Assembly: GCF_037042905.1 (NCBI RefSeq)
Contig: NC_087245.1
Location: 26,414,001-26,478,000 of the forward strand
From: Lytechinus pictus
Taxonomy: Eukaryota
Direction of reading: 5' to 3'
DNA length: 64,000 nt
Shown piece by piece: positions 16,209 through 61,998 of the stretch. The notes under the pieces are model-generated. The model was not told the DNA's origin, ran no database searches, and saw only the letters and a list, made by a program, of their open reading frames with translations. How positions within the stretch are numbered: the first letter of the stretch is position 1; each line of letters begins with the position of its first letter. Made by a program: the position numbers and the translations under genes.

Positions 16209-16289
16209 CAATTTGTATCTGATCGAAAGGTTGATGAAGAGATAGGCAAGGCTCTGAGGTACACATGGAATCCAGACCAAATTGTTGAG
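16209..16289 (+). CDS. SPATS2: SPATS2-family protein, conserved exon (absent from ORF track)
   Basis: TTTAG acceptor, GTAAGA donor, 81 nt. QFVSDRKVDEEIGKALRYTWNPDQIVE resembles SPATS2 HFVSERKYDEDLGRVARF. Confidence 0.88.
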
Positions 16290-27091: not shown

Positions 27092-27514
27092 CTCCATACA
27101 ATTTTCAAAAAGAAAAGACACTCCCTGTGAAATGCCTTCATTAAAAACCTTTTTCTTTGCTTGCTTGTAATTTTTTTAAGGAGACAAAATGCCATTAATT
27201 TGTGAGTGATTAAAAAATTGCTATATTGTAATACGACAGATTCATTTTCATGTAGGCACCTCCAATTATCCCCCCCCCCCCCCCGCTTTATCAAAGATTT
27301 TTAAATTATTCACTTAATTGTAGATTCCAGTATTATATTAAAGGAATTTCGAGGACAATCTCGATTAAGACGTTAGATCATATGATAACATCCGGGGATA
27401 ACATATCCCGGGGGGGGGGGGCACTCGACCAAAAAAGTGGTAGGGGTGTGCCGCGGGCGAGACAAAAAACGGGGGCCTTGGAGCGGCCCAGGACGAAATT
27501 CCATTAGGGTCCAA

Positions 27515-29110
27515 TAGCCTAATGGACCATCAGAAACCATTAGAGCTATTGGAGTCTAATGGTTTATGAAATATGGGACCCACAGAACCATTAGAAAATA
27601 TCTATTGGACCAACAACCACCTTCAGAAAAATGCTGTTGGACGAAAAGAAAACATCTAATGGACCCATAGCATAAATCTAATGGACCAATAGGAAATTTC
27701 TATTGGACCTGCAAAAAAAATTGATTAGACCCACAGGAAACTTCTAATTGACCCATAGAAATCTTCTATTGGACCAACAGAAAACTTCTATTGGACCATC
27801 AAAAATATTCTATTAGACCCACAGGAAACTTTTATGGGACCCACAGAAATCTGCTATTGGACCAATAGGAAACCTGTATTGGACCATCAAAAAAATTATA
27901 TTAGACCCACAGGAAACTTCTATTTGACCAACAGAAAATTCTATTGGACCATTAAAAATATTCTATCAGACCCACAGGAAACTTCTATTGGACCAACACA
28001 ATAATTCTATAGGACCAACAGAAAACCTCTATTGGACCATCAGAAATATTCTATTAGACCCACAGGAAACTTCTATTGGACCGACAAAATAATTCTATTG
28101 GACCAACAGAAAACCTCTATTGGACCATCAAAAATATTCTATTAGACCCACAGGAAACTTCAATTGGACCAACAGAATAATTCTGTGGGACCAACAGAAA
28201 ATTCTATTGGACCATTAAAAATATTCTATTAGACCCACAGGAAACTTCTATTGGACCAACAGAATAACTCTATAGGACCAACAGAAAACCTCTACTGGAC
28301 CATCAAAAATATTCTGAGACCCACAGGAAACTTCTATTGGACCGACAGAATAATTACATAGGACCAACAGAAAACCTCTATTGGACCATCAGAAATATTC
28401 TATTGGACCCACAGGAAACTTCTATTAGACCCACAGGAAACTTCTATTGGACCAACAGAATAATTCTGTGGGACCAACAGAAAATTCTATTGGACCATTA
28501 AAAATATTCTATTAGACCCACAGGAAACTTCTATTGGACCAACAGAATAACTCTATAGGACCAACAGAAAACCTCTACTGGACCATCAAAAATATTCTAT
28601 GAGACCCACAGGAAACTTCTATTGGACCGACAGAATAATTACATAGGACCAACAGAAATATTCTATTAGACCCACAGGAAACTTCTATTGGACCGACAAA
28701 AAATTTCTATTGGACCAACAGAAAACCTCTATTGGACCATCAGAAATATTCTATTAGACCCACAGGAAACTTCTATTGGACCAACAGAATAATTCTGTGG
28801 GACCAACAGAAAATTCTATTGGACCATTAAAAATATTCTATTAGACCCACAGGAAACTTCTATTGGACCAACAGAATAATTCTGTAGGACCAACAGAAAA
28901 CCTCTATTGGACCATCAGAAATATTCTATTAGACCCACAGGAAACTTCTATTGGACCGACAGAATAATCATATAGGACCAACAGAAAACCTATATTGGAC
29001 CATCAGAAATATTCTATTAGACCCACAGGAAACTTCTATTGGACCAACAGAAAACCTCTATTGGACCATCAAAAATAATCTATTAGACCCACAGGAAATT
29101 TCTGTTGGAA
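27515..29110. repeat. Left subterminal array: ~22-bp units (CTATTGGACCAACAGAAAA...) in an ~88-bp higher-order repeat
   Basis: About 70 units. The variant CTATTAGACCCACAGGAAACTT recurs every four units (e.g. 28051 and 28139). Confidence 0.95.
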
Positions 29111-33210: not shown

Positions 33211-33326
33211 TTAATACTTTCGAATGTCAGATATCTTCTCTCTGATGTAGCCATTGAACTTCCCAAGCTCTTTCTTGTATTGTTCGGGACTTAGCAGCTG
33301 CTTCTCTAAATGGTAGGCGAAAAAGT
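33211..33326 (-). CDS. BEND5-like protein exon 6 (end of BEN domain, stop)
   Basis: TTAG acceptor. DFFAYHLEKQLLSPEQYKKELGKFNGYIREKISDIRKY* resembles the last BEN helix (BEND5 VNKYICEKIMDINK as recalled). Confidence 0.82.
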
Positions 33327-33409
33327 CTAATACAGATATTGCAGTAAAGAAAAGACAAAAGAAAAGGGGGTTAGCAAAAACAAAGTTGTTATAGGAAAGA
33401 ATCTGCTGC

Positions 33410-34786
33410 ACAAAATTTTTTGACCATGCCACTCACAGAGTTTATACTTTATAAGTCTCGCGCATCTTTCTAGACCAAATTTACGACGCCTGGGTACGCG
33501 GTTCCAAAATCACGCAACATTTTGTAAGTGCATGTCAGAACAAAAATTGTTCCAAAACATGGTTTTGTGTACAAAGTCAATGCAAATTGAGTTTTCTCAT
33601 CTTATTCATAAAGATATGATTATTTTTACTTTAAGCAGCTGAAATAAATTGATTTTAGCATAATTATGCTTCAAAAAGGTTGTGCAATAAATCTGGTGAA
33701 AAGACAAAGAAAAACAAAAGGTTGAAAAACATAGAAATACATAAAACAATAAAATACATAAGAAATGATTTCCAAACTGAAGTTTTTTCTGTGGCTGGGG
33801 GGGGGGGTTGATTCAACCCCCCCTGAGATCTCGGCCGCCGATCGCGCGAGCGCCGCAAAAATTTGCTCGCTGGTAGTGTGCGATGTAATCTACAAGGCTG
33901 TATGGTAAAATTTTCCCAAATAATGAGATTTTATTTTATATGAATTAATTATGCTAATTTATGCATAAATCATACTTTTTGCTCTAATTCACTAAATAAA
34001 GCTCCTAGAATGCTAATTTTTGGTAAATATATTCTTTGTAGCATTCCTAACAATGGCAATTGAAAAAAACTTCGGTTTGGAAATCAATTTCTTATGTATT
34101 CTATTGTTTTATGAATTTCTTATGTATTTCTTTGTTTTTCAACCTTTTGTTTTTCTTTGTTTTTTTCACCAGATTTATTGCACAACCTTTTTGAAGCATA
34201 ATTATGCTAAAATCAATTGCTTTCAGCTGTTTAAAGTAAAAATAATCATGTCTTCATGAATAAGAGGAGAAAACTCAATTTGCATTGACTTTGTACACAA
34301 AATCACGTTTTGGAACAATTTTGGGTTTGACATGCACTTACAAAATGTCGCGTAATTTCGGAACCACGTACCCGGGCGTCGTAAATTTGGTCACAAAAGA
34401 TGCGCGAGACTTAAAAGTATCAACTCTGCGAGTGGCGCGGTCAAAAAATTTCGCGCGGCGGAATGATCGCAGAAAATGTGGAGGGGGGGGGGGGTTGATT
34501 CAACCCATCCGGCCATTTTAGGGTTAAGAATGCTACAATTAATATTTTACCAAAAATTAGCATTCTAGGAGCTTTATTTAGTGAATTAGAGCAAAAAGTA
34601 TGATTTATGCATAAAATAGCATAATTAATTCATATAAAATAAAATCTCATTATTTTGAAAAATTTTACCACACAGCCTTGTAGATTACATCGCACACGAG
34701 ATCTCAGGGGGAGGGGTGTGTCAACCCCCCCCCCCCACTCCCCCGGCCACAGAACAGCCAAAAAAGTCCGGCCTTGTTAGGGTTAA
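33410..34786. mobile_element. Two nested, oppositely oriented copies of a piggyBac-like MITE
   Basis: AGGG|TTAA ends at ~34527 and ~34786. 33415-33790 is the inverse of 34065-34450, and 33880-34050 is the inverse of 34524-34695. Confidence 0.65.
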
Positions 34787-34908
34787 TGAATTTGAAAAAT
34801 GCACATAAATTAGCATATTGAATGAGTTTCAAAATTCTGTTAAAGTTTTGAATTCCCTTGTGCAAAGAAAACAGAACTTTAAGTGCGAAGTGCGAAGAAG
34901 AACTTTAA

Positions 34909-35492
34909 AGGAGAATGAAACTCTTGGAGCAAGTTGGCTTTTGTGAAAGCAGAAAAATCAAAGAATAAGATCAACAAAAGTTTGAGTAAAATAGGACTAG
35001 CAATAGAAGAGTTATGAGCATTTGAATGTCGAGATCACTAATGCTATGGAGATCCTCCCATTGGCAATGCGACCAAGATCTATGATGTCACAGATGAACA
35101 ACTCTCCCCTTTTGGACACTGAAAATATACCCCAAAACATCTCTTTTTGCTCATTCTAATCATATGGCAAACGATTCATCAATGATATAATGTTGTGAAA
35201 CCTCTGTACTTGTCCTCTCATAATGAGAACACCTCACCTTGTGATAGACACTATAAAAGTGAGAATATAAGTGAAATAAGTACTAAAGTAATGAGGGAGT
35301 TGTACGTGTGTGACATCACAGATCTTGGTCGCATTGCCAATGGGAGGATCTACATGGCATTAGTGATCTCAATATTCAAATGCTCATAACTTTCTTTTTA
35401 TTCATTCAATCTTCCTCAAAATTTCAACAATATGTTTCTTTGATTTTTCTCTTTGATATGGATTCAGCTGGTTTCAAGGGTTTCATTCTCCT
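34909..35492. mobile_element. TTAA-flanked MITE (Kolobok-like), family B
   Basis: TTAA|AGGAGAATGAAAC...GTTTCATTCTCCT|TTAA with ~185-bp imperfect inverted arms. Confidence 0.8.
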
Positions 35493-35602
35493 TTAAGTGC
35501 GAAGAGGAAGCATTTTAAAATTGTGGACGAACGACAGATGCCATGGACTACGCTTATCTGAAAAATTAAACAAAAGGAAAGAGAAAATTTAAATTTTGTT
35601 AC

Positions 35603-35816
35603 CTTTAACTGCCTGCAGCTTTCCTGAATCAAGTGCAGGCCGTACTGCATGGTCCTTGTATCTGTTACACGTCTGTCCAGTTACAGAACTTTCTCTTAAA
35701 AGAGCAGTTCCAAAGACTGCAACTGCAAGGTTTTTAACCATTAGGCTATTTTTAACCTGCCCAGTTATAGCCTCCATTTTGTCTGCAGGTATGATTATTC
35801 CTGCTCCTAAGGACAC
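35603..35816 (-). CDS. BEND5-like protein exon 5 (BEN domain core)
   Basis: VSLGAGIIIPADKMEAITGQVKNSLMVKNLAVAVFGTALLRESSVTGQTCNRYKDHAVRPALDSGKLQAVK shows the BEN signature (L..vFG...L...S.TG.....rp.Ld..kl). CTAG acceptor, GTAACA donor. Confidence 0.9.
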
Positions 35817-37170: not shown

Positions 37171-37355
37171 TTGACCATCATCAGGCACATATTTATCTTC
37201 GAGAACTGTTGGTGTTGGTAGTTGTTCGGCTGGTGGGGGGGTCTGGATTGGTGTGGGTCTAGGTTGCGGAGCCTTGAAAAGGGGCGTAGTGTGTTGTACA
37301 GAAGTGCTGGAGGGGGGCTGTGTGCGTGCCTTCACAGTTGGTATCAAGGGTCCCA
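37171..37355 (-). CDS. BEND5-like protein exon 4 (Pro/Thr linker)
   Basis: Ends PTPTVLEDKYVPDDGQ (BEND5 PAPVMDKYILDNGK as recalled) followed by a GTAAGT donor. Phase 1-0. Confidence 0.8.
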
Positions 37356-38130: not shown

Positions 38131-38413
38131 CTTTGTTTAGAATTTCTTCTTGAAGCCTCCGATTCAGGGTCCTCAGTTCCTCCAATTCTTGGGCGATAGT
38201 TCTCTTTTCTTTTTCTAGTTCTGCAACTTTTTTTTTCAAGGACATGCAGTTACCACAGTTGGAAGCACTGGCAGACACACCAGTGTTTGGGGTTGTTTCT
38301 TTCTTGGGTGCATCGGTACAAGGGAAAAATGTCTTGCGTTTCACCATCTTTTCTTGCAGGATACTGTCCAGGGCTGTTTTTTTGGCTGTAGAAATGTGGG
38401 CGTTGGTGGCTTT
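38131..38413 (-). CDS. BEND5-like protein exon 3 (CxxC and coiled coil)
   Basis: KATNAHISTAKKTALDSILQEKM...CGNCMSLKKKVAELEKEKRTIAQELEELRTLNRRLQEEILNK (BEND5 MKELRDLNRRLQDVLL as recalled). AG/GT boundaries, phase 0-1. Confidence 0.82.
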
Positions 38414-39212: not shown

Positions 39213-39364
39213 CTTGGCAACTTTTTCTTCAGCGAACTTTTGTTTCAGGGATAGTGGCACAGACTCCTCCTCATCACTTGCCTCCTCCACACTTGACTCA
39301 ACAAGCTTTCGGACCCTGATTCTTGGCCCATTCTGTATTCGTTCCTCCAGCTTTTCCTTTGTCT
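39213..39364 (-). CDS. BEND5-like protein exon 2 (absent from ORF track)
   Basis: CTCAG acceptor, GTAAGG donor. Encodes ETKEKLEERIQNGPRIRVRKLVESSVEEASDEEESVPLSLKQKFAEEKVAK. Phase 1-0. Confidence 0.8.
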
Positions 39365-40938: not shown

Positions 40939-41187
40939 TAAAATGTAGGCCCCTAACTGTTATACTGACTTTTTTTTTTACTGTACTACTACTATGTAGA
41001 TCAATGATCTAGAGTCTATTTCTACAATGATCTATATATCATAATCATATAGTATAGGCCCTATAATATATGGCAAGTTCCCCCAACGGCCCAAGCATGC
41101 CAAGTCCATGAAGAAGTCTGCGCAGTCTTAAAATTAAAAGAAAAAGTTAAAACAAAAAGTCTTAATTTTGTTGTGAGTTTGGCCTAC

Positions 41188-41392
41188 CTTCCAGCAGTAG
41201 AATCTGAGCCCTGTAGTAGTCAAATTCTTTGCCCTCCTCGTTGTCTAAATCCATGGGTTCGACCCCATCTTTGTTCTTGCTACTAACTCCTACATGTAGG
41301 GTCCTCTTCAGTTTCTTTGTCGATGTTTTCTGTGAGGTGTCGCCGCGCTCGACGACCTTCTTCGCCGGCTGCCTCCAAAGCACATAATACAC
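41188..41392 (-). pseudogene. BEND5-like exon 1, 3' part (separated from its start by a foldback insertion)
   Basis: VYYVLWRQPAKK...EFDYYRAQILLLE followed by a GTAGGC donor. It joins in frame to 47767-47877 when 41402-47766 and one TSD copy are removed. Confidence 0.82.
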
Positions 41393-43599
41393 CTTATCTT
41401 CGAATCAGGGACAACTCGGACCACGGGACATCTCGGACCGTGGGCCGAGTTGTCCCACCCGTTTCGTGATTTTTTTCCCACAAACTTGCGTCTATTTTTC
41501 CGTCAATTCGAAATTTCTTGTAATGATTTTCTAGAGATCTGGTCTGTTGGTAATGTTCTTCACTTTCTATTACTTTTTTTTCGCTGAAGTTAAAAAAAAA
41601 AGTGTAATTTTAGGCGTTTTTCGACAGCTTGCGATTCCCATAGGCGCGCGTGTATTAACTGTGTTGGTGCTCGGCTCGGCCCCGCTCAACAACTGACTTG
41701 ATTTTGTGATCATTTCTCCTCAAGTTACCACTTTTATCGCAGAAGATGGACTTTCTTGTATTCCATTCACTCTAATTATTCATCACAAGGATAAAATTCG
41801 GTGTATATGCACGATTCTGTTAAAGTTTTTCACCTTTTCTCTCTGGTCCGAGTGGTCGTAAGAAGCGAACAACCGATGAACGGTCCGCTGCTCTTCATCG
41901 CAATTCTACGTAGCTCGGCCGCCGAAACTGGCGGGGTGGGATTCAGCCCGAATCCCCAATGGAAGTGGGCGTGCACAGTCGAAGAGCTGAGCTTGACTGA
42001 GTGAGAGAGAGTGAGTGAACTGGAGCTAGGCTCTGCTTTTTTTTGGTAAATATATATATGTATTTTTTTATTTTGTCTATATTGATTTTCCCTGGTGTAG
42101 AGCTTTAATATTTTAATAATTTAATATGCTTCAATTTCTTTGACTGAGTGTGACTGTGGTGTGGATGTTTGAGTCGCACAAAAAATACTTTTACGTGGGT
42201 GGGGGCTCGGGGCGATTTCACTCCTGCCCCCAAAATGTGAAAAAATATCTGCGGTGTAGATGTGTGGGCCTGCTAGGCTGAGGGTATAGCCATCAATAAA
42301 AAATGTTTTATTTGGGGGCTTAATTTTGAATTAAACTATTTTTTACAGGATTTAAAAAATAAAATGATGTAATTCATTGTGCCCCTTTCCATTCCTTGTT
42401 TTTCCCTGATTTACTTTCTTTAATTTTATTTCTTGGTCTTAAGGGTGGATGTCAGGCTGCCGGGGTGGAATTCAGCCGGAATTGCCAATGGAAGTGGACA
42501 TACTTGCACAGTAATTAGCCTGGAGACTCGAGCCTTGCCCTGCAGTTGTGAATATTTTTTCAATCAAGTTTTAAATACTCAGTTGGCTGGTTCAATAAGG
42601 GCCACTCAGTCTTATTCCCATTTGAAATATAATCAGGGGCGGATCCAAAATTTCCCTACATGGCCGGGGGGGGGAATTTTGTATAGGAATTTTTTGACAA
42701 AAGGTCTTCACTACCAAACTTGAATCACAGTAATTTTTTCCCCAGGAAAAATTTGACAAGCAAAGAAAAAAGGGTTTTCAGTTGCCTTTTGAGTACCTCT
42801 AAACGGGGGGGGGGGGGGGGGGGGGGGGGCGGATGTGCCCCCCCCCCTGATTCGCTACTGGAACTAATGTCCATTTCATTCAGTTTTTCTTTTTTACAGG
42901 AGGAAAGAATAGAGTAAGAAGTTTGGTGTTTTGTATTTTTACCAATTATTGTTTATTCAATATGAAATGTATTTAATTTAGTATAATTTCCAAAAAGCAT
43001 CACTTAATTAACTTATTTAAATTTAAAATGTAAACATGAATAAAAATTGTGAACTTTGAATGAATATATTCTGTAAATTGTAATATTTTTAAATCATATT
43101 TTATCTCCATTCTTATCATTGTCTCCTTTTCTCTTTATGTTCATCACTCTCATTTCAATTAAATATATATTCTGTTACTGGTATAAAAAAAAAGACAACA
43201 ATACTAAACACTGATACATTGATCAATAGAAAAAAACAAAGAAAAAGAGGGGAAATACAAAGAAATGACAGGTACATGGAGGGGGGGGGGGTAACAACAA
43301 ATCATGCTTGTCTGGGTTTTAAAAACAGGAGAAGGGTGGTCAATACAATATTGCAATTAGCAGATTATGAAGAGGGTTTTGTTTTTATCAAATAATTTTT
43401 GCAGTTCCTTATGAAACTTTGGAGTGATGTTGTTTTGTTTTTCTTTAATAGAATATCACCCATTCTAGAAAACTGAACTCTGTATCTAACACTAAGTTGC
43501 CCTAGTGTTGTTTTCCAATCTACATTTTCTAGTTCCTGGTATCATAATTATGGATGTAATCATTTAAGGTGTACCAGTTAGAAAAGTACTATTCATACA

Positions 43600-43992
43600 A
43601 TGATACAATACTATGTTCATTGACCCTAAATGATATTTGACCTTGATCATGTGACATTTCAATGATACTTGATTACCCCTATGTCCAAGTTTTATGAACC
43701 AGATCCATACACTTTCAAAGTTATGATGGTTATTCAACAAATACCCCCACATGGCCAAAGTTCATTGACCTTGAATGACCTTTGACCTTGGTCATGCGAC
43801 CTGAAACTCGCTGCAGGATATTCAGTGATACTTGATTAATCTTATGTCCAAGTTTTATGAACTATGTCCAAATACTTTCTAAGTTATGCTGTCATTTCAG
43901 AAACTTAACCTTCGGTTAAGATTTGATGTTGACGCTGCCGTCGGAAAAGCGGCGCCTATAGTCTCACTCTGCTATCCAGGTGAGACAAAAAT
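43600..43992. mobile_element. Helentron-associated (HINE/DINE-like) repeat fragment
   Basis: Internal TGACCTTTGACC repeats and a terminal hairpin GTCTCAC...GTGAGAC next to an A-run. Confidence 0.5.
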
Positions 43993-44483
43993 CATGATAC
44001 AGTGATGGAAAAAAAAGTAATAGAATAAATTTAATCAAAAAGAAAACCACATGCTATGTAAAAGAAATGAAATTCAAAATCATAAATTAGTCATTTTTAT
44101 TGAATGAAGAATTTAATTTATTGATAATTGGAAAAAAGATGAACCCTATTTTCTTTCAATGGAACCCAAATAGTTGTAGGGCCTAGTATGATTTTTCATC
44201 ACATAACATGATTCAGAACAAAAATCAAGCCATATGTGACGTTTTGGGTTTAATATCGTGTGGGACGGAATCTACATGACGGCATTCGTTGGACGGATTT
44301 TTCTTCTTAAATCTATCTATCTCTGCTCATCCTCATATCTTTCATTACCTTCATCCCTCTCATCAGAGGGATGGAGGTAATTAGGCGGATGGGAGGAGAT
44401 TGACATGAGAGGAGGGATGAAGATGATGGGAGGATCGAGGGGTGGAGATAATGAGATGGTGGGAGGAATGGAGATGATGGGAG

Positions 44484-45947
44484 CAACCGCGTAGCCAGGA
44501 TTTCATTTTGGAGGGGGCGGTAATCGCACGCGAAGCGTGCCAACACTTACAGAGCGCGCGAAGCGCGCTCCCTAGGGGGTGGGTGCAGGGAGGGGGAGTT
44601 TCCCCCTCCCGCGCGAAGCGCGAAGCTTTTGGTGTTTCATAAATTAAAATGAAAAGGAGCCGTCTCTCTTGTCTCTAGTACCTATATCACCTCCAGTTCA
44701 GTTGACAATATTGTGATTTTGAACCTTTTTTTCATGAACCTTGTTTTCAAAAGTGATTGTGAGCGAACGCATAAAAGGGGAATACAATGGAGGAAATTAA
44801 AATAATAACCCCGCGCGAAGCGCGGAAGCTAAAGCGTTTTTTTCAATTTTTTTCTGCCATGAAAAAGGTCCCGATAAAAGGGTATTTTCAAAGATATATT
44901 GAATACTTCCCTTGGAAAGATCATATTTGATTACAAACGATTTAGCGACAGTGCATAACTCGCAAAATAGAGGAGAAGAAGTGTATATGCAGGGAGGAAG
45001 ATATTCCTCCCCGCGCAGAGCAATGAAACTCTGAAGTTTCAAAGGGCGGACGTTTCATCAAATTCAGATATCTCTAATACCCCATCGGGTCTAATTCGAT
45101 TGATTTTCTAAGATTATTGAACTTCATTACAAGGAAAATAGTGCGCAAAAAGTTGAAACTTCTGTGATTCATTGAAATTATATAAAAAAGGATGCCTAAT
45201 TTATTTGACTTATACTGAAGCGCTTCATTTTGAATTATAAAGAACCCTAAGTGTCATTCAAAATTTCAAACTGAGTGCGCAAAACAGGACAAGAGATGAA
45301 TGTGCAGGGAAACGACATGAAGTTTAATAGAATTTGATAATAAATATTGTACTTTTTTATCTAATACGACACGAATTTTATACCTTCCTTTTTTTAAATT
45401 AGGAACCTGTTTGCCCCAAAATTATGGTTGATTAGTAATGAGCTGAAAAGCAGGAGAAGTTGACTTTATGGAGGTGACGGCAGAAATTGATATAAAGATT
45501 TTACCCGCCCATGGCCGACCCGTCCAGAAGTGGCGCAATCAATTAAAAAAAAAAGATAACTTCATATACTTCGGCCTAACCTTACTCTAATTATATGCCC
45601 TAATGCATAAATTTGAACTTTAACTGGCAAGAAACGGGCAAGAAACACATATAGCTGAGGTGGAAAAACAGGGTTCGAGAAAGGATGGGGGAAACAATGG
45701 AGAACTTCAATATTATCATTTAACCGCGCGCCGCGCGGAAGCAAAATTCATATATAAATTTAGAGCAAGAGAGAAGGAGTTTCTCTTTTGAGAAAAAAAT
45801 AAAGAATAAAAAGAAAAAAAAACACAAAGCTACCTTTCTTCCCTTTCCTCCCTTCCCTTTTCCTTTTCTCCCCTCTTTTTTCCCTTCTTTTTTTTTCTTT
45901 TTGGGGACGTTTTGGGGGGCGACCGCCCCCCCCTGGCTACGCGCCTG
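44484..45947. mobile_element. Non-autonomous hAT element nested in the foldback element
   Basis: TIR CAACCGCGTAGCCAGG / CCTGGCTACGCGCCTG. Perfect 8-bp TSD GATGGGAG (44476-44483 and 45948-45955). Internal CGCGCGAAGCGCG motifs. Confidence 0.85.
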
Positions 45948-47766
45948 GATGGGAGAGAATGAGGCGAATGGGAAGAGCATCCCTTTCAAGAAAATAAATC
46001 AGGGAGGAACAAGGAATGGAAATGAATTGAATTATTTTTAATCCTTTAAAATAAAAATAATAATTAAAAATTAGGCCCAGAAACAGAAAATTGATTGAAA
46101 AAACCCCCCATATTATTCACAACTACAGGGCCAGGCTAGTCTCCCAGCTCAGGCTGTGCACATATGTCCACTTCCACCATTGGTGTTTCCGGCTGAATTC
46201 CACCCCCAAAACAGTCGTGTGGCTTACTCAAGTATAAGCCACACCACTTGAGTAAGCCACACCACAAAAAGGCACAGAACTAAACTTAAGTTCTACACCA
46301 GGGAAAATGAATTCCAAAAAAAAGAGGGAGCAATTGAAGCGGGCAAGCTTGTAATGGGGGCGCCTTGTTTCCCTTACTCAAGTAACAGAAAATTGATTGA
46401 AAATAAAAACATAATATTCATAACAGCAGGACCAGGCTATATAGTCGAAGGCTGTGCACGTATGTCAACTTCCATTGGGGTTTCCGGCTGAATTCCACCC
46501 CGGCAGCCTGACGTCCACCCTTAAGACCAAAAAATGAAAATAAAGAAAGTATATCAGGAAAAAACAAGGAATGGAAAGGGGCACAATGAATTAAATCATT
46601 CTATTTTAAATCCTGTAAAACTTAAAAATAATTAATATGAATTGGGGGTGGGGGGTTGAGTATCAAAATTTTTTTAGGGGGTTTGAACGCCTGTAACCAC
46701 CCCCTGCGTACGCCACTAAATTGAAGCATATTATTGCAACTTAAAACTCAGCTCTCTACACCAGGGAAACTCAATATGAAAAATAAAAAGGAAATTTATA
46801 TACAAAATAAATAGGCCTAAAAATAATTAGTTTAATTAAAAATTAAGCCCCCAAATGAAATATTTTTTATTGATGGCTATACCCTCAGCCTGGCATGCCC
46901 ACACATCTACACCGCAAATATTTTTTCACATTTTGGGGGCAGGAGTGAAATTGCCCCGAGCCCCCACCCACGTAAAAGTATTTTTTTGTGCGACTCAAAC
47001 ATCCACACCACAGTCGCACTCAGTCAAAGAAATTGAAGCATATTAAAATATTACAATCTTAAAGCTCTACACCAGGGAAAATCAATATAGACAAAATAAA
47101 CAAATACAAATATATATTAACAAAAAAAAAGCAGAGCCTATAGGTACGTCCCGACCCCTTTCTTCAAGCTGTAGTTCACTCTCTCTCACTCAGTCAAGCT
47201 CAGCTCTTTGACTGTGCACGCCCACTTCCATTGGGGATTCGGGCTGAATCCTACCGGTACCCCGCCAGTTTCGGCGGCAGAGCTACGTAGAATTGCGATG
47301 AAGAGCAGCGGACCGTTCACCAGAGAGAAAAGGTGAAAAACTTTAACAGAATCGTGCATATACACCGAATTTTATCCTTGTGATGAATAAATAGAGTGAA
47401 TGGAATACAAGAAAGTCCATCTTCTGCGATAAAAGTGGTAACTTGAGGAGAAATGATCACAAAATCAAGTCAGTTGTTGAGCGGGGCCGAGCCGAGCACC
47501 AACACAGTTAATACACGCGCGCCTATGGGAATCGCAAGCTGTCGAAAAACGCCTAAAATTACACCTTTTTTTTTTTACATCAGCGAAAAAAAGTAATAGA
47601 AAGTGAAGAACATTACCAACAACAGACCAGATCTCTAGAAAATCATTACAAGAAATTTCGAATTGACGGAAAAATAGACGCAAGTTTGTGGAAAAAAAAT
47701 CACGAAACGGGTGGGACAACTCGGCCCACGGTCCGAGATGTCCCGTGGTCCGAGTTGTCCCGACCC

Positions 47767-47877
47767 CTTATCTTCGTGGTGGGTCGATTGATCAAAGTTT
47801 TTTATCTCATTTACTCTGACGATCGCCGTCGACCCACACTCCCGAAATTTCACATATGCGAAATTGTGAACCACCAT
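47767..47877 (-). pseudogene. BEND5-like exon 1, 5' part with start codon
   Basis: ATG at 47877. MVVHNFAYVKFRECGSTAIVRVNEIKNFDQSTHHEDK resembles the BEND5 N-terminus MYAFVRFLEDNVCYALPVSCVRDF...NQKVY as recalled. Confidence 0.8.
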
Positions 47878-48550
47878 ATTGATCTCCGGTCGAGTACCGT
47901 ATATTCCTAATAAACGTCTTCTCATATAATTCACGAAGAAATAGAGATGAAATATCAGCTATTGAGATTGTCCGTCCATGCACTGCAGATGAGAAAATCG
48001 CACTGAACGTGGAAAACGTATTTGGTCGAATCGGCGCTAAAACAATGGCTTCCGATTGGCTATTGGTCGGTCTACCAATTTAGCGACCGAAGAATATGAT
48101 GCTTAATTGAGATCTTTATTTTCATAATATTTAATAAAAAATATATAAATATATAATCCTTGGATTAAAAAATAATAATAATAAGAAACAGATCTATTTC
48201 TTTAAAAAAACAATGAAAATATATTTCGTGATTTTGAACTAACCGAGTCGAGTCAAGTTGCGCGCGCACGTAGGATACGACGGTTGAAATTCCGGATTTC
48301 CCCTATCTTCCTTCTTGTTTGTATTTTGGCGGGCGGCTATCGAATTCTGCTGAATTCGCACAAATTTGCGCGGGTACGGTACCGCCGACCAGCCGGGAAT
48401 ACTTGACTGGTACGGTGCTAACGTGACGTTCGTACGATGAGGACATCTTGAATCGGCGTCGATCTACTAGATTTTATGACATTTTTGTATTTTTGCAACC
48501 ATAAATTTGTGTTCTAAATAGTGATAGAATAAGTACGATATAGTAGAGTC
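47878..48550. promoter_or_regulatory. Putative bidirectional promoter between the BEND5-like and transposase genes
   Basis: 673 bp between divergent ATGs. CpG-rich flanks around an AT-rich core. Cluster of three CCAAT/ATTGG motifs at 48055-48079. Confidence 0.55.
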
Positions 48551-49016
48551 ATGGATCGGCAGCGTCGAAAAAGAAAGAATTACCTCGAACCACAGAGCGA
48601 TGCACAACTACCCGCCGCGACGCGATGGAGGATGAACAGGAGACGAGCGCGATTAGCCCCCGCTGCCCTGGCAGCGGCTGACGAAGTGAACGCTCCCCCC
48701 GATGATGATAGCACTGATGATATGGAGTTTGAAGGAAATCATCCACATGCCTTTGTACCTCGTCCATTGCAATATGATGTTAGATTTGATAGTGATCAAA
48801 ATGCAGCCGATGATGAGTCAGAAATGGCAACCGGAGAAGATGATGAGGTCGAGGCCCGGCCCAACAATTGTGATATTTCAACTGCAGGTGGTGTCATGTT
48901 AACTAGTTCAGCTGCTGCAATAGATCGAAGGGCAAGGCAAGCCAGACTAACTACATGTAGACTGACACCTAACTCGGTCTCAGACTCAGAGTTGATTGGA
49001 AGTGAAACTTTTGAAG
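48551..49016 (+). CDS. CACTA/CMC transposase exon 1 (basic N-terminus then acidic region)
   Basis: MDRQRRKRKNYLEPQSDAQLPAATRWR...; GTTAGT donor in phase 1, compatible with the downstream exons. An earlier donor near 48887 is also possible. Confidence 0.65.
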
Positions 49017-49044
49017 GTTAGTCATGGACAGTAGATAATGACTA

Positions 49045-50941: not shown

Positions 50942-51010
50942 AAAGTGATGCAAGTGATGATGTACCAGTATCTGCAAATGACAACAGCAGCTTAGTTTCA
51001 ATTGCATCAG
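50942..51010 (+). CDS. Transposase putative mini-exon 2
   Basis: TTCCAG acceptor, GTGTGA donor, 69 nt, phase 1-1. Encodes ESDASDDVPVSANDNSSLVSIAS. Confidence 0.55.
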
Positions 51011-51776: not shown

Positions 51777-51833
51777 GTGCATCATGCGATGACATATCTG
51801 CAAATAGCTCCAGCCTTGGTTCAATAGCATCAG
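51777..51833 (+). CDS. Transposase putative mini-exon 3 (duplicate of exon 2)
   Basis: ATAG acceptor, GTTTGA donor, 57 nt, phase 1-1. Encodes GASCDDISANSSSLGSIAS. Confidence 0.4.
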
Positions 51834-52453: not shown

Positions 52454-54945
52454 ATATCAATGATGATCCACATGGCGATGAACCAGATGATCCACAGGGT
52501 GATGATCCAGATGACCCAGAAGGCGATGATCCAGATGATCCACATGGCGATGAACCAGATGATCCACATGGCGATGAACGAGATGACCCACAGGGCGATG
52601 ACCCAGAAGGCGATGATCCACATGGCGATGAACCAGATGATCCACAGGGCGATGAACCAGATGATCCACAGGGCAATGATCAAGATGATCCACAGCGCCA
52701 AGATCCAGATGAAGAAGATGACCAAGATATATTTGATGAAGGTTTGAACTCTCCACTGTTTCATGGTTCAGGTACTTCAAAGGCCGAAGCCCTGCTGATA
52801 ATTTTGTCATTTGCGATGAAGAATTGTTTGTCAGCTACTGCTTTACGTAATTTACTTGAGCTCTTGAATACAATAATTGGATCATGTATTTTCAAACCAA
52901 CAAAGTCTATCCTTCAACAACTCTTTTGTAATAATGCTATTCAGCTTAGCTTTCATTTTTATTGTTTAATTTGTTCCAGTTATGTTCGCTCTTTTGCCAG
53001 TGTCTCTGATGAAAACGTTGCATGTCCCAATTGTGATCAACAATGCATAGTATCTGACCTCAGTCAAGGTAATTTTTTTGTTACAGCAAACTTGTCTTCA
53101 CAAATCAAGCAACTTTTTGAAAGGAAAGACATATCACCACATTTATTTTATCGTGACCGCCGCACAAAGCAAACAGAGGGTAATATTGAGGACATATTTG
53201 ATGGTACAATGTATAAGAAGATGATGGAAGAAGGTGAACCACTAAGTAATAGAAACAACTTTTCATATACGTTTAATAGTGATGGCTTACCAGCATTTAA
53301 ATCATCAAAGTATTCAATTTGGCCAATCTACATAATGGTAAATGAGCTGCCCCCTAAACTTAGATTTAATAATTTGATTCTCGCTGGGGTGTGGGTTGGA
53401 AAGGTAGACCCAAAGATGGAAGTTTTTCTGAAGCAGTTCACATTAGAGGCAAACAAACTAGCTGACGAAGGAGTTTTCTGGAAACTTGGAGACAATGTTA
53501 TACATAGCAAACTTTTTGGGTTATGTTGTTGTGCAGATGCACCAGCTAGAGCCGCTATGCAGAATAGAATCAAGTTTAATGGATACAGTGGATGTGGTTT
53601 GTGCTACCATCCTGGGAAAACAGTTGATAGGGTTGTAAAGTATCCATTCGATGTTTGCGATTATAGTGACCGCACTGATAATGAAATGCTAGAAGACATG
53701 GTTCAGGCAGGAACAGAGGGTAGGACTGTTAGAGGCGTTAAAGGGCCTAGTGCCCTTATAAATCTGTCCCATTTTCCCATATGCTGGGGCTTTGCACCCG
53801 ACTTCATGCATTGTTTGCTGCTTGGTGTTGCGAGACAATTGGTAGAACTGTGGTTGTCTTCGCCAGCAGTTAGTGAATGGTATATTGGAACTCCTCGGGT
53901 TATTGCATTGCTTGACAAAAGACTGAAATCATTGAGGCCACCTAGCATCATTGTGAGAGCCCCTAGGCGTATTTCAGAGAGGAAGTTTTGGAAGGCATCA
54001 GAATGGTATGCTTGGTTATTGTTTTATTCTGTTCCTTGTCTGAAAGGCGTACTTCCTCTCCAATATTGGCAACACCTTGTAGTTCTTGTTGAGGCCTCTT
54101 TCATTTTGTTGCAGAAGTCCATATCGATTGATGACATCAATAAATGTGACATTCTTCTATTTTCATTTGTATGTAGATTCCAATTATTGTATGGTGCAGC
54201 TGCCATGACTTTTAATGTTCATTCTTTGACACATTTGGCTAAAGGTGTCTATCAATGGGGGCCATTATGGACACACTCTTGCTTCCCATTTGAAGCAGCC
54301 AATTGGCGCGTCAAACGTCAACTGCATGGAACTCGAGGTGTGCTCATGCAAGTCATTACTAAATTTCTCACAATCCATACTTTGCCATTTTTTATTGATA
54401 GTCACAATATTTCTCACCGTGTTAAAACATTTGCAGGAAATATGCTGAATATTCAAATTCGAGGAACTGGGGAGGAACCCAATGTTCAAGCGTTAGGCTG
54501 TGGCAGATCTAAGTTTTGTACTGAAGAAGAGAGAATGGCTCTATCAGCTGCAGGCTACATAATTGAGGAAAATGAGCCAATTATATCCTTCAAAAGAATA
54601 AAGAAAGATGGTGTCCTTTTCTACACAGCTTCATACAGGGCGCAGACAATGACTCGAGACAATAGATTTATTTTAGTTTCAAATGATAGAGTTTGTGAGC
54701 TCCAAGATATTTTATATTTGAATGACCAGTATGTGTTCCTTGTAAATTTATTAGTTCTGGAAGAAGACGCATCTTTAAAAGATGATACCACAGACACTAA
54801 GTTGTCACATGTCTTGCTTTGCACAGGTCAGTCCGAGTTACCAATGGCTATTTCTGCTGCAGAGGCATTCGGGAATTGTCTCTCAATGAAGTTTGATGAT
54901 GTGCACTATATTGCTGTTTTTCCTAATCATGTATCGATCAATTGA
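52454..54945 (+). CDS. CACTA/EnSpm (CMC, Transposase_21-like) DDE transposase, main exon
   Basis: Uninterrupted ~830 codons after a TTTAG acceptor. Motifs: CxxC...CxxC zinc finger (CLIC, CPNC), FNSDGLPAFKSS...WP...NELPP, ADAPARA...NGYSGCGLC, DFMHCLLLGV, KASEW, HSLTHL...GPLWTHSCFPFE. Confidence 0.92.
52460..52715 (+). repeat. Coding 24-bp minisatellite (DDP[H/Q/E]GDEP)n in the transposase
   Basis: About 10 copies of GATGATCCACATGGCGATGAACCA variants, frame preserved. Confidence 0.9.
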
Positions 54946-54963
54946 CCTGACTTATGTCTTTAA

Positions 54964-55542
54964 AGGTCAAGTCCACCCCAGAAAAAAGTTGATTTGAATA
55001 AATAGAGAAAAATCAAACAAGAATAATGCTGAACACTTCATCAAATTCGGATGGAAAATAAGAAAGTTATGACATTTTAAAGAATCGCTTATTTTTCACA
55101 AAACAGTTCTATGCTCAACTCAGTGATATGCAAATGAGAGAGTCGATGATGACACTCATTATTTATTTTGTTTTTTATTGTTTGAATTATACATTATTTC
55201 ATTTTTTACGGATTTGACAATTATGACCATCTTGTTTGAACCACAAACTTTTGAAACAATCGAATTCCACATGATCAGGGAGGAATAAAACCTTTTCTGC
55301 ATGACAATTAGGAGAAAATTCAAATAAAATACAAAAGAAATAGTGAGTGAGTGATGTCATCAGTCTCCTCATTTGCATACCGACCAGGATGTGCATATAA
55401 CTGTTTTGCGAAAAATAAGCGAAAATTTAAAATGCCATAACTTTCTTATTTTACATTAGATTTTATGAAATTTTCGATGTTATGCTCGTTGGATTTTTCT
55501 CTTTTTATTCAAATCAACTTTCAGTTGAAGTGGGCTCTTCCT
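54964..55542. mobile_element. TTAA-flanked MITE, family A, just after the transposase stop codon
   Basis: TTAA|AGGTCAAGTCCACCCC...GGGCTCTTCCT|TTAA. Homologous to 4575-5176. Confidence 0.8.
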
Positions 55543-55549
55543 TTAAGGC

Positions 55550-56005
55550 AGTTTGGAACTGAATATTGGTGATGGAAAAAAGCAGAAGTTACAGGTTTTA
55601 CCAAATTTTCCCTAAAAATATGGTTACCATGGCAATCGATGTCTCTACCCACTCCAAAATCATTAGGCGGCTTTGCTTTACCATATTGGTCCTTCATGCC
55701 ACATTTGAAGATGATCGGAGAAGAAATGTAGCTGGAAGAGCGCTCACAAGGATATCTCTGCTATTTCCACAAAATATCTTGCTACCATGGCAACGATGTC
55801 TCCGCCCACACCAAAATCGATAGGCTTCTTTACTAACCATAATGGACTTTCATGCCACATTTGAAGATGATCGGAGAAGAAATGCATCTGGTAGAGCGCT
55901 CACACGAAAATCTCTGCGGCGGATGCGGCAACGGCGGCGGCGCGTCGAGGCCAAATCCATAGTAATCCATTGTATCCCCGAACAGAGTTCAGAAGATACA
56001 ATTAA
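55550..56005. mobile_element. Helentron-associated (HINE-like) repeat fragment
   Basis: Two ~158-bp internal repeats (CCATGGCAA...CATGCCACATTTGAAGATGATCGGAGAAGAAATG), a (GGC)n tract and a terminal hairpin TGTATC...GATACA. Confidence 0.5.
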
Positions 56006-59000
56006 TCTTCTTTCTCACTTTATGAGATGAAATTAGACTATAGACAGCCTTAAGTTGAACCCGAACCTATGCCTGAACCATAATAGCTTGATTTTTCAAT
56101 GGAAATGTAATATTAAGTTTATTTACATCATAGTAGAAACTTGCTTCTTTGGTGAATATTTTCTGTCTCCTGTTATAATAAACATTGATGACAAAAACAT
56201 TCAGTCCCAAAATGTTACATTATACATGGGATTTTGGTGTAAAACCGCATACAACCAGCATGGATATAATGAGACTTCTCTCCCGTATTTTCAGTGACCC
56301 CACAACAACAAAATTTAATTTGTCATGAGCATGAATTAGGTGATCTGCCCTGATTTTAATGATCATTGTCATTATCACCATGTCCATGTGGATCAATATG
56401 GATAAAAAATGGAGGTGACCTACATCACCTACCGAAATCTCAGCTACAACATATTCACAGCTCCGCATAAAAATGGACAAGAAATAGTGGAGATATTGCT
56501 CGCGAAATAGAGGAGTGTAGAATCCAATTTTGGGAAAAAGTAATCTCCCAGAGATTACACGCATTATGAGCAAAAATGCATGCCTCTATAAATTGTTACT
56601 TTCCACTGTATCCAGCTTTGTGCTATATTTGATATTTATTATAATTTGGTAGATCAGTGTCCATTTCTCTTTACTCTGCCTGTAGTGGATAAATGGGACC
56701 ATTCCACTTTGATATTATCATGCATTTGAGGACTCCTTTGGCTCTCTTTCCCCTATTGTGTTTTGTAACTCTGGGGTCTGTTAGGCATTATGGCCTTGTG
56801 ATTGGTATTGTTTGCACTTATTCCACAGATAAGATAATTTACTTGTGAACTATGTAATGTTATAATTGTTGCAGGGACCATTCCTATTATTCTCAAACTG
56901 CAAAAAAAAAAGTTTAATTGCAACAGCTTATCTCCATGGATAGGAATGCCACTCTGATTAAAAAATTATTGTATTCTTGGCAGAATAACATCATACATGT
57001 ACATAAAATCACATAAGTTTATAAATCATGCAATATTATTTTCACGAAATCTCTGAACGATTGGTAATGTGAGTTATACATGTACACTGTGGCTTATCTA
57101 AGCTTTGTTTGTAATTTGTAATATCTTAATGAGTAAAATTATTTTGTGGATTTTCAATGTTTTTACCAGCACATATTTATGTTATATTTTTTTATATGGT
57201 TCACCTTCTACCATCATCTTCTTTTGAGGTTTTGATTTAAATATCTCGCAAAATATTTGTAATTACTAGTTTGACATTTATTAGTAATTTACCAGCAATC
57301 TTCCTTAATTCAGCTCTGTAATCAATTTATTCATCTCTCTTATGATAATCTCTTCAATGTGAGGGTGTATTTTGTTTAACAAATCTATGTAGAAAACAAG
57401 AAGATTATGAATATTTAATTTTGTGTGTGCCGTCACATCCTCTCGTTCATGTTTGCCATCCTTTATACCTTTGGATAATTATTTTATAGATCACTGGTCC
57501 TTAATTAATGTGCATTAGCAGGGTATGAGATATGTAAAAATACGACAGTCAATGGGATAATTACTTTCTACTGACTTTTATTATCTGGAAATTGTACTAT
57601 ACATGTAAACTCAATATCTGTATGTAATGTTTCTTTATTACCATACTCTGTTAATTTGTGTATTAACAGAGACATGCCCTTTTTTATGCTTATTAACAAA
57701 TGTCGCAGTAGAACTGCCATGGTTATCCTTTTTTTGTCACAGAAATGAAAGAAGCAATTTTTTGACAGTTAAAAAGAAATACATTAACATGGGAAATATC
57801 TATCTGGCGGAGGCCAGACTCTTGCCTCATGGAATATGGAACCAGAACATACATGTAAATTGTATGATTTATTTTATATATTTGTTTGTTTAAAAACAGG
57901 GAAGCCGATTCAACGATGTGTTGGTCTCCCATGGTGCCTTATGACAATGTACATAGCATAACATTGCAATTATAACATTCATTTACATAGCAACTTCACA
58001 AGAGAGGCATAAATATTTGTAAGTACATGTGAAAGAATCATAAAGCTAAAGTGGCAAGGAAAGAACATACAATTAGCAGAAAAGTACAATGATTTAAAAA
58101 GCAGATGACGTGAAATTATTAAGGCATGTATTGTTCGAATTTACATTTAGCTAAAATCTTTAAATTTAGAAAGTAAGCTGGAGTTGGAGTTTCTGTTGGT
58201 CATAAAGGTTGGATATTTCAATTTACTTGTGCTTGAATTTCTTGAATCTATTTGTCCCACTTTCTTCTTTTGGGACCCTGCCTATATATTGGATGTCCCC
58301 CTTACTATTCCAGGGGATTTAAAAAAAGGTTTGTCAACCTCACAATGCCTAATTGTCCTCAGGACCCAATTCTGTTTACCTGGCCAACCAAAAGCAAAGA
58401 CATAAAACGAGAAGAAATTGATATCATTTGGACTGAGAAAATAGCTTGTTTTTTTTATTTTTTATATCGAGTTTCCATTGTACTCAACTTAGACCTTGGC
58501 ATGTGAAAGAAAGCTGCATTCCTCTCTGAAAATGTGGAATTGTGGGTTTTCATTGTCAATTCTAAGAATTGAAATATTGCATGATTCAAACAGTAAAAAA
58601 AAAAAAAAAAAAATAGGAAGTGAGGGACATCAACCACTCTCTCATTTGCATATCACTGAGTTGTGCATATGTTTTGTGAAAAAAAAAAAATTAAAGGAAA
58701 ACTCTAAAATGTCATAACTTTCTTATTTTACATCCAATTTGATGGAATATTTCAGAATTATGCTTGTTTGATTTTCTCTATTGATTCAAATCAACCTTTT
58801 TCTGGGGTGGACTTGACCTTTAAACTTCCGTAAACCCAGGGGGTGATTAACTATAACAAAGATCAATATCGTCCATAAAAAGTGAATTCAGAGATTGATA
58901 ATTTAAATATCCATTCAAGCATTTTTTTTGTAGTGGGATAGACAGGTAGTATTCCTTTCAATTATCTGATAGATTAATGTATGCAGAGATGTGAGAGTTC

Positions 59001-59439
59001 AGCCTTTAGGGGGTTTGATTTTCAGCAGCTTTCCTCTGAACAAACATTCAAGCTCTTTCAATTTCATTTTTTTATCAGGATATTTTTGCCAGTCACACTC
59101 CTGCGTATGACCTTGTACCTCGTAACAAAATTTTTTATGTGAAATTTACCAAATATATATACATATATGTATTTTATTACAACTTGTGTAATGTCAAACT
59201 ATTGAATATATATTTATTTTGAGACTTGCGTCATTTACACACACTTTGAGAGACGGAAAAAGGTGAAATGTTGTATTTGTAATTCGAATAGTATGAAATG
59301 AATAAAATTTATTCAAACTACACATTACAATTATTGATATTGGTAATATTTTCTGCTCCACCAACAATCTATTCTGATTTGTTTTATTTGAACGAGATAT
59401 AAATCTTAAGAGACGTCTAACTTGCATTTTTCCCTTCAG

Positions 59440-60075
59440 AGTATCTGATGGTTTTACAAGACCAATAGAGTCTCTGATGGTTTTACAACACCAATAGAGT
59501 CTCTGATGGTTTTACAAGACCAATAGAGTAACTGATGGTTTTACAAGACCAATAGAGTCTCTGATGGTTTTACAAGACCAATAGAGTCTCTGATGGTTTT
59601 ACAAGACCAATAGAGTCTCTGATGGTTTTACAAGACCAATAGAGTCTCTGATGGTTTTATAAGACCAATAGAGTCTCTGATGGTTTTACAAGACCAATAG
59701 AGTCTAGCTCTGATGGTTTTACAAGACCAATAGAGTCTCTGATGGTTTTACAAGACCAATAGAGTCTCTGATGGTTTTATAAGACCAATAGAGTCTCTGA
59801 TGGTTTTACAAGACCAATAGAGTCTCTGATGGTTTTACAACACCAATAGAGTCTCTGATGGTTTTACAACACCAATAGAGTCTCTGATGATTTTACAAGA
59901 CCAATAGAGTCTCTGATGGTTTTATAAGACTAACAGTCTCTAATGGTTTTATAAGACCAACAGAGTCTCTAATGGTTTTATAAGACCAACAGAGTCTCTA
60001 ATGGTTTTATAAGACCACTAGAATCTTTAATGGTTGCATAAGACCAATAGAGTCTCTAATGGTTTTATAAGACCA
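59440..60075. repeat. Right subterminal array: 29-bp units AGAGTCTCTGATGGTTTTACAAGACCAAT
   Basis: About 22 head-to-tail, highly similar copies, degrading into scattered CCAATAG/CTAATGG/CCAACAG motifs up to the right TIR. Confidence 0.95.
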
Positions 60076-61998
60076 TCATAATCTGATGGATCGGGAGAAA
60101 CATACTCTGATGGTTTCTGGTGGTTTTAATGGACCAACAGACTGACATTTTCTAATGGTTTTATCGGACCAATAGAGTCTGATGGTGGTTTTAATGGACC
60201 ATTAGCCCTTGTCCACCAGAAACCAATAGAGTCTGGCTGTATGAGTTGGAGTCTATGGGTCCTGTTGGTTAAACCTGTTGGTCCAGCAAGAGGCTGACCC
60301 ATTCATTCTATTGGTCTCTATTGGAGTACAATGGGAAATCTAATGGTCCATTAGAAACCATTAGAAACCAACAGAAATTTTCTGTTGGTCTCCTGTTGGA
60401 CCCTAATGGAATTTCGACCTGGGGGGCTTATTGTAAAAAGGAGGGTCCTCGGAACGGGGCTTCGGAACTACAACTGTTTGTGAAAACGGGGGTCCTTGGA
60501 ACGGATCGCCAGCGTGTGAGTGCGTATGCATCGATCCCTATGGAACGGGCATGCGTGCATGATGCACTGAGCTAGCGAGGCGGCCTCCGCCGGGTGCGCT
60601 CGCGCAGAGGCGATGGTCGGACAGCGCTCTGCGGCCGCTTTTCACCAAAATTGCAGCTCATTGTAGCAGATCAATGCGACCGGAACGGCGTAACGAAAAA
60701 TGTGCGAAGCTTTGGAGCGGATTTCTTTCTTCTTTTTTCTCGATAAGAAGAAAATGCTATATGCTTTGGAGCGGCTTTCTTTGTTCTTTTTCTCAATAAG
60801 ACAAAAATGCTATGCCTTGGAACGGAAATTTGAGTGTAAAAATGGGGGTCCCCTCCGCGGCACATACCCACTATGCATTATATACTGAGTGCCCCCCCCC
60901 CCCCCGGTAACATATCCACATCTACTCCCGATACGTTTGATAAAACTAAAAAACTGAACACAACTCTATTCCAACAATTAATGAAATCCCTTTTTAGGGT
61001 GTGCAAATCTGGGACATCTGCATATAATCTGTGTTTCGGGGTCCTAACAGCTTGTTCTAAAATGTCTGATTTAGGATTTTTTTTAGTGACATCCCCGCCC
61101 CCCCCCCCCCCCGGGCCCGGCCCCCGATAAGTAGTTCAAAATGACAAAGCGCACTTTAATGCTAATTTCAGGCAATTCAAGATGGCAGCGCCCATAGGTG
61201 AACTTATCACGTTGAGATTTGTTAAACAAATAACAATTGAATTCTGTCCATGGGAGAAAAACGTACGATCTGTTAGGTATGATGAGCGATTAAAACCTAT
61301 ATTTTACTTGATTAGTGAATAGATCTGATCTAACGTCAATGATATTACTTGTATTTAATAAAGGTGTTGTCGCTGTCGCGGTATCGCGATTTATGCAGGG
61401 ACTAGCGCATGTCCCACCCGTAGTGATCGATGCAGGGTATTCTACCCACTCATCCTACCACTCCTGCATTAATTTGTGCGAAAGAACTTGGAGATTTGTG
61501 ACATTTTTGTTATTACATTCAAATTGCATCATGAGTCAATCACAATCATAAAATATGCTGCTGCACATGAACTTTCTGAGTTCATGGCTCATGCTGTAGG
61601 CCTAGATCCAAATGTTAATAATAATGCCATGGTAATGGTTTCATTTTCATGACAATTTTTTCTTGATCTTATTCTTAATTTCTTATTCTTCATGTTCTTG
61701 GAACATGTGGAAAGTGGAATTGAACAAATTTATTGCTCACGACATGACCAATAAATTTGTACAATTCCACTTTCCAAGAATGAAGAATAAGATGAAGAAA
61801 AGGCTATGTCATGAAATTGAAAATGAAATCGTGTCCACTCACACATATTGCGAGGGTAGAATGCTAACCTTGCACTACGAAAGTGATTACACAATGCAAT
61901 GGATTTTTAGTAGTAGGTTATTAACATCGCTTCGTTGTTGACCAAAACTTGTTCCGCTACTCACCGGGGCTCTTTCCAGTGAGTGGCTATCCGTTTTT

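Follow-up and report, generated by a model that had tools for sequence, protein, structure and literature searches.

Animal CACTA-like transposons of the TRC/EnSpm group (SmTRC1 and its relatives) encode a Transposase_21 protein from spliced coding sequence, end in terminal inverted repeats (TIRs) that start with CCC, duplicate 2 bp at the target site and contain internal tandem repeats; sea-urchin homologues of TRC elements are mentioned in the same paper (PMC1636069; statements attributed to cited papers, here and below, refer to the portions of them that were available). The combination of CCC ends, 2-bp target-site duplications (TSDs) and Transposase_21 in animals is already published there and is not new. 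A 2026 structural survey of 962 predicted Spm proteins from Repbase places TnpA-like regulators apparently in flowering plants only and mentions other, unnamed accessory proteins; the BEN domain is not named in its available portion (10.64898/2026.08.24.746577). The 64,000-bp stretch of Lytechinus pictus DNA analysed here, called the window (G000:C1:26414001-26478000, in the 812-Mb genome searched), contains a real, recently mobile animal CACTA/EnSpm (CMC) cut-and-paste DNA transposon of two-gene design, with a transposase gene and a divergent partner gene predicted to encode a BEN-domain protein.

The element extends from position 27487 to 60423 of the window. A preliminary description of the locus, made from the sequence alone, had placed matching 28-bp TIRs 32.9 kb apart; on end comparison the left TIR (27487..27514, plus strand, starting CCC) and the right TIR (60396..60423, minus strand) agree at 27/28 bases, and the ends are of the CCCAG type. 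The GG duplication that it had also described is present at the outer side of both ends (27485..27486 and 60424..60425), and the interrupted host miniature inverted-repeat transposable element (MITE) picks up again at the right-hand GG. The host MITE rejoins cleanly, as had been proposed: the empty site, holding a single GG, has 1,668 genome matches at ≤3 mismatches (the 100 listed are exact), against 0 for a reversed pattern used as control. The element has therefore split a high-copy MITE and duplicated two bases. Absence of the duplication from an empty site was checked at the window copy only; 2-bp TSDs are found at 6/6 two-ended elements (GG, TA, AA, TC, AT and AT), two of which are short (1.7 and 1.9 kb) with related ends and AT duplications. 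The element transposes as a single whole, duplicating 2 bp of target, and the expectation of further loci with the same TIRs and different TSDs is borne out.

A second full copy lies at G000:C21:13925302-13951278 (25,977 bp), with different flanks and a TA duplication, and keeps both genes. It is ~99% identical to the window copy and colinear with it in the parts compared. The transposases of the two copies differ by two synonymous and two non-synonymous changes over 745 codons (synonymous divergence, dS, 0.004), and the last move was therefore very recent. With both frames open, the C21 copy is a candidate active element. The ~7 kb by which the window copy exceeds it is mainly a nested insertion of 6.4 kb. 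This non-coding element (6,363 bp, 41403..47765, with ~1.1-kb inverted arms) is not part of the transposon family, is absent from the C21 copy and is flanked by an 11-bp duplication (41392-41402 and 47766-47776) inside exon 1 of the partner gene. The ~33-kb unit originally described has real ends, with the refinement that 6,363 bp of its length is nested insertion. Since the insertion lies within exon 1, the BEN gene of the window copy is interrupted; public gene models carrying the window copy's residue (P0004, P0005) are without part or all of the N-terminal barrel. The repeat family of the nested element is a common one (622 candidates, of which 40 were scored; many copies at 93–99%, internal lengths of ~3–7 kb as judged from paired matches), and the nested element has no open reading frame (ORF) longer than 105 amino acids.

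The two divergent spliced genes noted earlier are recovered as a six-exon BEN gene on the minus strand and a transposase gene on the plus strand, with predicted splicing. The partner model consists of six GT-AG exons. Exon 1 is divided by the nested element into a first half with the start codon of the model (47766..47877) and a second half (41188..41391) that encodes a Tudor-like barrel according to a fold search. It is followed by exon 2 (39213..39364), exon 3 with a predicted coiled coil (38131..38413), exon 4 with a predicted proline-rich linker (37171..37355), exon 5 with the BEN core (35603..35816; preceded by a phase-0 and followed by a phase-1 intron, like the corresponding exon of a fish BEND5 gene) and exon 6 with the end of the BEN domain and the stop codon (33211..33326), which matches public model P0003. 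The model is open for 421 amino acids when the insertion in exon 1 is skipped, and its exon boundaries agree with those of P0003; P0003–P0005 are themselves predicted gene models.

The BEN domain is recognized by profile (Pfam PF10523, E 4.5e-6, 27.2 bits against a cut-off of 23.2), and the TnpA-type family has no Pfam match in the partner protein. The predicted structure (predicted local distance difference test score, pLDDT, 77.7; predicted template modelling score 0.40) has a small barrel at the N terminus, then long helices and a loose linker, and a separate domain at the C terminus. Fold matches to the C-terminal domain are the BEN domains of Insv, Bsg25A, NACC1, BEND6 and BANP, the best being Insv (E 1.2e-4) and Bsg25A (Z 13.1, root mean square deviation (rmsd) 1.8, 100 residues aligned), both of which bind DNA. 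The barrel finds Tudor domains as its best matches with middling scores (JMJD2C: Z 6.0, rmsd 2.4, 55 aligned). Sequence searches of the PDB returned nothing significant. The models show a partner with a predicted build of Tudor-like barrel, coiled coil and BEN domain. Two diverged pairs of BEN exons, each including one member that does not adjoin a detected transposase, have a non-synonymous divergence (dN) of 0.045 with dS 0.63 and a dN of 0.019 with dS 0.50 (dN/dS ~0.07 and 0.04), and the BEN exon is, by this measure, under purifying selection. The ratio is uninformative between near-identical copies (three non-synonymous and no synonymous differences between the Tudor exons on C19 and C2), and dS between families is saturated.

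The start codons of the two genes are separated by a CpG-rich spacer of 673 bp (47878..48550; CpG observed/expected 1.89 versus 0.60 in the interior), probably a bidirectional promoter as predicted from its composition. The predicted transposase gene contains an acidic exon 1 (48551..49016), two optional in-frame mini-exons that are predicted only (50942..51010 and 51777..51833) and a main exon (52454..54945) with the Transposase_21 match. The open frame of 849 codons grows to 985–1027 amino acids with one to three upstream exons, the splicing being predicted. The window protein scores slightly below the Transposase_21 cut-off (E 3.6e-6, 26.8 against 28.6 bits), which 4/5 relatives scanned pass. 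D192, D277, E529, a CxxC and an HxxxH (numbering from window position 52708) are invariant in 6/6 aligned transposases; we take them to be the DDE triad with its C(2)C and H(3-4)H signature, D192, D277 and E529 being the presumed catalytic residues. No helix-turn-helix (HTH) family of Pfam matches the main exon, and the structure model of the transposase, built from a six-sequence alignment, has a poor pLDDT of 45.5. The acidic, Asp/Pro-rich tract before the core is an in-frame 24-bp repeat (window 52462-52712) that is 8 codons shorter in the C21 copy.

Nine near-full-length transposase loci are among the matches listed for the genome; they form six families, with identities of 34–63% to the transposase of the window, which belongs to family 1. 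The remaining 31 of the 40 listed matches are fragments, distant matches or pieces within the nine loci. A partner gene stands divergent and head-to-head at eight of the nine loci, in five of the six families, for which a rough chance figure is 2e-4 per locus, and ends enclosing both genes are shown for four of the loci. In family 2, two loci retain the two ends as well as the two genes, C13:28962252-28981727 (TSD AA) and C14:1477898-1504733 (TC), the ends being nearly the same as those of the window element. Family 3 (C19 and C2) has the head-to-head partner, family 4 (C8:25.61 Mb) a divergent BEN exon above the Pfam cut-off, and family 5 (C11:18.65 Mb) a weakly identified divergent gene, the most distant partner, whose exons agree in order and phase with those of the others. 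Judged from these sequences, transposase and partner gene have stayed together in several families, and selection maintains the partner. These results uphold the proposal of an animal CACTA element with a BEN-domain protein in the second-gene slot and the prediction that the same pair would recur at other loci; with multiple BEN loci in the genome, the BEN gene is not a single-copy host gene. Neither protein has a confirmed locus among viral contigs (0), and two metagenomic loci (1.6 and 2.4 kb) are too short for linkage.

About ten BEN-like loci have no transposase match nearby. BEN-like exons of this kind lie at G000:C8:1873598 (followed by a 20-bp tandem array), C5:24802087, C13:17279893 and 17283678, C2:33977642, C5:52002962, C9:1300878-1302298, C19:4565809 and C31:431653, and are candidates for deleted elements or host genes. 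At G000:C11:24491858-24496169 (L033-L037), where no transposase match was found nearby, a family-1-derived partner carries five BEN exons in tandem at ~395-bp spacing, each open; such a gene could encode a multi-BEN protein or use alternative last exons. Upstream of the family-6 transposase, an arm-like 25-bp array with a palindromic GTACCGCGGTAC core is found (L077:4200-5080; G000:C10, ~30072200-30073080).

Both subterminal arms contain the repeat arrays that had been noticed inside the ends: tandem-repeat analysis gives periods of 22/44/88 bp on the left (27638..29109, plus strand) and 29 bp x 21.9 on the right (59438..60075, plus strand). CCAAYAG occurs 57 times in the left arm, in both orientations, and 29 times in the right (maxima of 3 and 2 in 200 shuffles each). 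The 30-kb interior has four copies, one of them in the intergenic spacer at 48066, which places 86/90 motifs of the element in the arms. CCAATAG is common to the arms of families 1 and 2, which have BEN exons 51% alike, and the family 2 arms are rich in CCWATAG. The arm motif resembles the site of the fly ELBA complex, CCAATAAG; the Insv site is TCYAATHRGAA, which human BEND5 binds weakly in vitro (PMC4281564).

We consider it rather probable that the partner does a TnpA-like helper's job, its BEN domain contacting the arm motifs, its coiled coil allowing multimers to form and the protein assisting in end pairing and in self-regulation. The two core genes would be read outward from the one short CpG-rich promoter, and the partner would dimerize through its coiled coil while its BEN domain binds the CCAAYAG-type motifs arrayed at both ends. 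Bound partner would then coat the ends, help to pair them for the transposase and tune the element's promoter; the job done by TnpA in plant Spm would here fall to an unrelated fold. Several results weigh against this helper model. CCAAT also forms the core of the site for the host factor NF-Y, and a search of both arms for the full Insv consensus gave 0 matches. The ends of families 3–5 were not located. The Tudor-like first exon of family 4 scores just E 0.34, and the family 5 partner has no Pfam BEN match and weak profile scores (E 0.04 and 0.027). Family 6 (G000:C10:30079458) has no partner within 10 kb upstream and a different arm repeat, and a family-5-like BEN exon at G000:C10:30180749 shares its strand with the nearest broken transposase instead of standing head-to-head to it. 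Motifs from chromatin immunoprecipitation of mouse Bend5 are reported to be unlike that of Insv (PMC9233729).

The partner might instead be a core gene that acts on chromatin or transcription only, through self-repression or anti-silencing of the element. It would then take no part in cutting, and the transposase or a factor of the host would occupy the arms. The BEN-solo proteins known so far act as repressors and boundary factors (PMC4281564; PMC9233729), animal transposases are said usually to have the TnpA-type DNA-binding domain fused to them (10.64898/2026.08.24.746577), and both the Tudor-like N-terminal domain, with its middling score, and the CpG-rich spacer would suit such a role. 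The crowding of the motif into the arms, with a single copy in the promoter, and the lack of an HTH Pfam match in the transposase main exon make this alternative the less likely one, although we give it appreciable weight. We hold it to be improbable that the BEN gene is passive cargo of no benefit to the element, derived from one or several captures of a host BEND5-like gene. Its head-to-head layout and exon phases are the same in five families whose transposases are 34–63% alike, the dN/dS of the BEN exon is low, the best matches to fish BEND5 are linked to transposases of families 2 and 3, and the AGBL4-like locus of the genome is without a BEN match. A cargo origin would nevertheless be consistent with the BEN-like loci that have no transposase match nearby, one of which might be the host copy, with a window copy that moved or persisted with an interrupted exon 1, and with trees that reject neither host-gene placement (approximately unbiased (AU) test p 0.24 and 0.20). 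It is hardly credible that the 33-kb unit arose as an artefact of assembly or nesting in which unrelated ends and genes were joined: its length is unusual and it holds several nested repeats, but the colinear second copy with other flanks and another TSD effectively refutes this, and the rejoined empty site is high-copy.

The nearest named proteins to the partner are sea-urchin gene models called 'BEND5-like'. The partner resembles vertebrate BEND5 over its full length, from the Tudor-like start through the coiled coil to the BEN domain, at ~25–35% identity. In a genomic fragment of a fish BEND5 gene, the BEN exon comprises 71 codons and is flanked by introns of phase 0 and phase 1, positioned as in families 1–3; 2/2 intron positions and phases testable in this one fragment are shared. 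By sequence, architecture and gene structure, the partner is shown to be homologous to BEND5. A profile search recovered 89 proteins, most of them annotated as BEND5 of vertebrates, and a search of 1.84 billion representatives gave 118 matches, 28 of the 52 with at least 280 amino acids spanning both barrel and BEN domain. Cluster membership was examined for 20 of the matches, which include a crinoid, a sea cucumber (two lineages), ticks, a firefly, a barnacle, three sharks, an alligator, a frog and teleosts, the last with several copies on one contig.

Chimeric gene models in which BEND5 exons are fused to carboxypeptidase (AGBL4-type) exons on either side suggest that BEND5 is nested in AGBL4, and stickleback Bend5 is described between Agbl4 and Elavl4 (PMC10516590). 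At the AGBL4-like exons of this genome (G000:C11:12.33 Mb) no BEN exon is among the matches listed, and the top four matches to fish BEND5 are all linked to transposases, in families 2 and 3 (E 3e-11 to 1.4e-9). Trees were built from 45 rows (quick) and 20 rows (careful, with a bootstrap that had not settled), hand-picked from 115 two-domain proteins with most near-identical BEND5 orthologues left out and with no independent outgroup. BEND5 and one shark protein form a firm clade (99/96) that is weakly sister to a multi-copy bream lineage (88/88). BEND5 appears as a single, slowly evolving clade that tracks the species tree. The partner falls outside it and is not a BEND5 orthologue by clade or by AGBL4 locus. 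The backbone lacks resolution, and the branches of families 4 and 5 are very long. None of three groupings is rejected by AU tests (p 0.18, 0.24 and 0.20), which allow both a host origin and a single vertebrate clade. Proteins of sharks (P0024, P0134, P0051) and teleosts (P0017, P0026, P0029), together with L070, make up one or two BEND5-like lineages besides true BEND5, and the quick tree places two shark proteins with family 3 of this genome (Shimodaira–Hasegawa-like approximate likelihood-ratio support 93); these extra lineages are possibly element-borne copies in vertebrates.

On balance we lean towards an old and widespread animal CACTA/EnSpm lineage in which a Tudor-like/coiled-coil/BEN helper replaces TnpA. 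The scattered, multi-copy 'BEND5-like' genes of echinoderms, ticks, insects, crustaceans, sharks and fishes would mostly be such helpers, and jawed-vertebrate BEND5 would be a copy that landed at AGBL4, lost its transposase and was domesticated. The transposon-to-host direction would follow from the patchy, multi-copy distribution and not from the tree. If this is true, the ancestral BEND5 binding site is readable from the transposon arms.

Other features of the window are as follows. MITE-like repeats lie inside the element at 33413-35500, 38590-39050, 40020-40940, 54957-55550, 55600-55920 and 58550-58830; they are common to the C21 copy in the parts compared and are therefore older than the last move. 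The two copies differ in a duplicated unit near 40020-40940. Outside the element, an open 367-codon Tc1/mariner transposase unrelated to it is encoded at 62598-63701 (minus strand; DDE_3, E 3.7e-19, and HTH_Tnp_Tc3_2). Exons of a host gene on the plus strand (~10356-18862) include a SPATS2-like match (12704-13102, E 9.6e-10) and a long Gln/Gly-rich exon (17861-18862), and a fragment at 1-516 (minus strand) looks by eye like the end of a non-LTR (long terminal repeat) retrotransposon protein.

The two-gene CACTA/BEN design could not be found in print. No publication was found that ties BEN or BEND5 to CACTA/EnSpm elements, and no such link appears in the available portions of PMC5704228, PMC11601247, PMC10789644, PMC11075544, PMC9233729, PMC6004678 and PMC5768337; Repbase entries or the figures and supplements of the Spm survey may already record such a second ORF. 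Human BEND5 is a 421-amino-acid chromatin and candidate tumour-suppressor factor (PMC5768337), and the element allows a direct test of its origin, with the arms as natural arrays of candidate binding sites. Many genes annotated as 'BEND5-like' may be transposon parts.

The window element and SmTRC1-type elements have in common Transposase_21, CCC TIRs, 2-bp TSDs, tandem repeats and splicing. SmTRC1-type elements are 4.5–9.2 kb long with one alternatively spliced transposase gene (PMC1636069), whereas the window family measures 26–33 kb (family 2: 19–27 kb) and has a separate, divergent Tudor-like/BEN gene. With plant En/Spm the element shares a related transposase, a second protein (DNA-binding in plants) and motif-dense subterminal arms. 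The plant elements have CACTA...TAGTG ends and 3-bp TSDs (PMC4158355), in contrast to CCCAG ends and 2 bp here, and plant TnpA has a tandem HTH derived from a transposase (10.64898/2026.08.24.746577), in contrast to a BEN fold encoded by its own head-to-head gene. A separate second gene of unrelated fold in animals would be a solution convergent with TnpA. The two-gene elements of the PIF/Harbinger superfamily also pair a transposase with a separate DNA-binding partner, and their Myb/SANT partners were later domesticated as transcription factors; they differ from the window element in transposase superfamily, partner fold and TSD. Transposon-derived domains listed in the available portion of one paper include Myb/SANT and MADF, BEN not being among these (PMC11601247). 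The BEN fold unites the partner with BEND5, Insv and Bsg25A/Elba, and with BEND5 it shares architecture and introns as well; BEND5 is a single clade at the AGBL4 locus, whereas the partner is multi-copy and lies inside a transposon.

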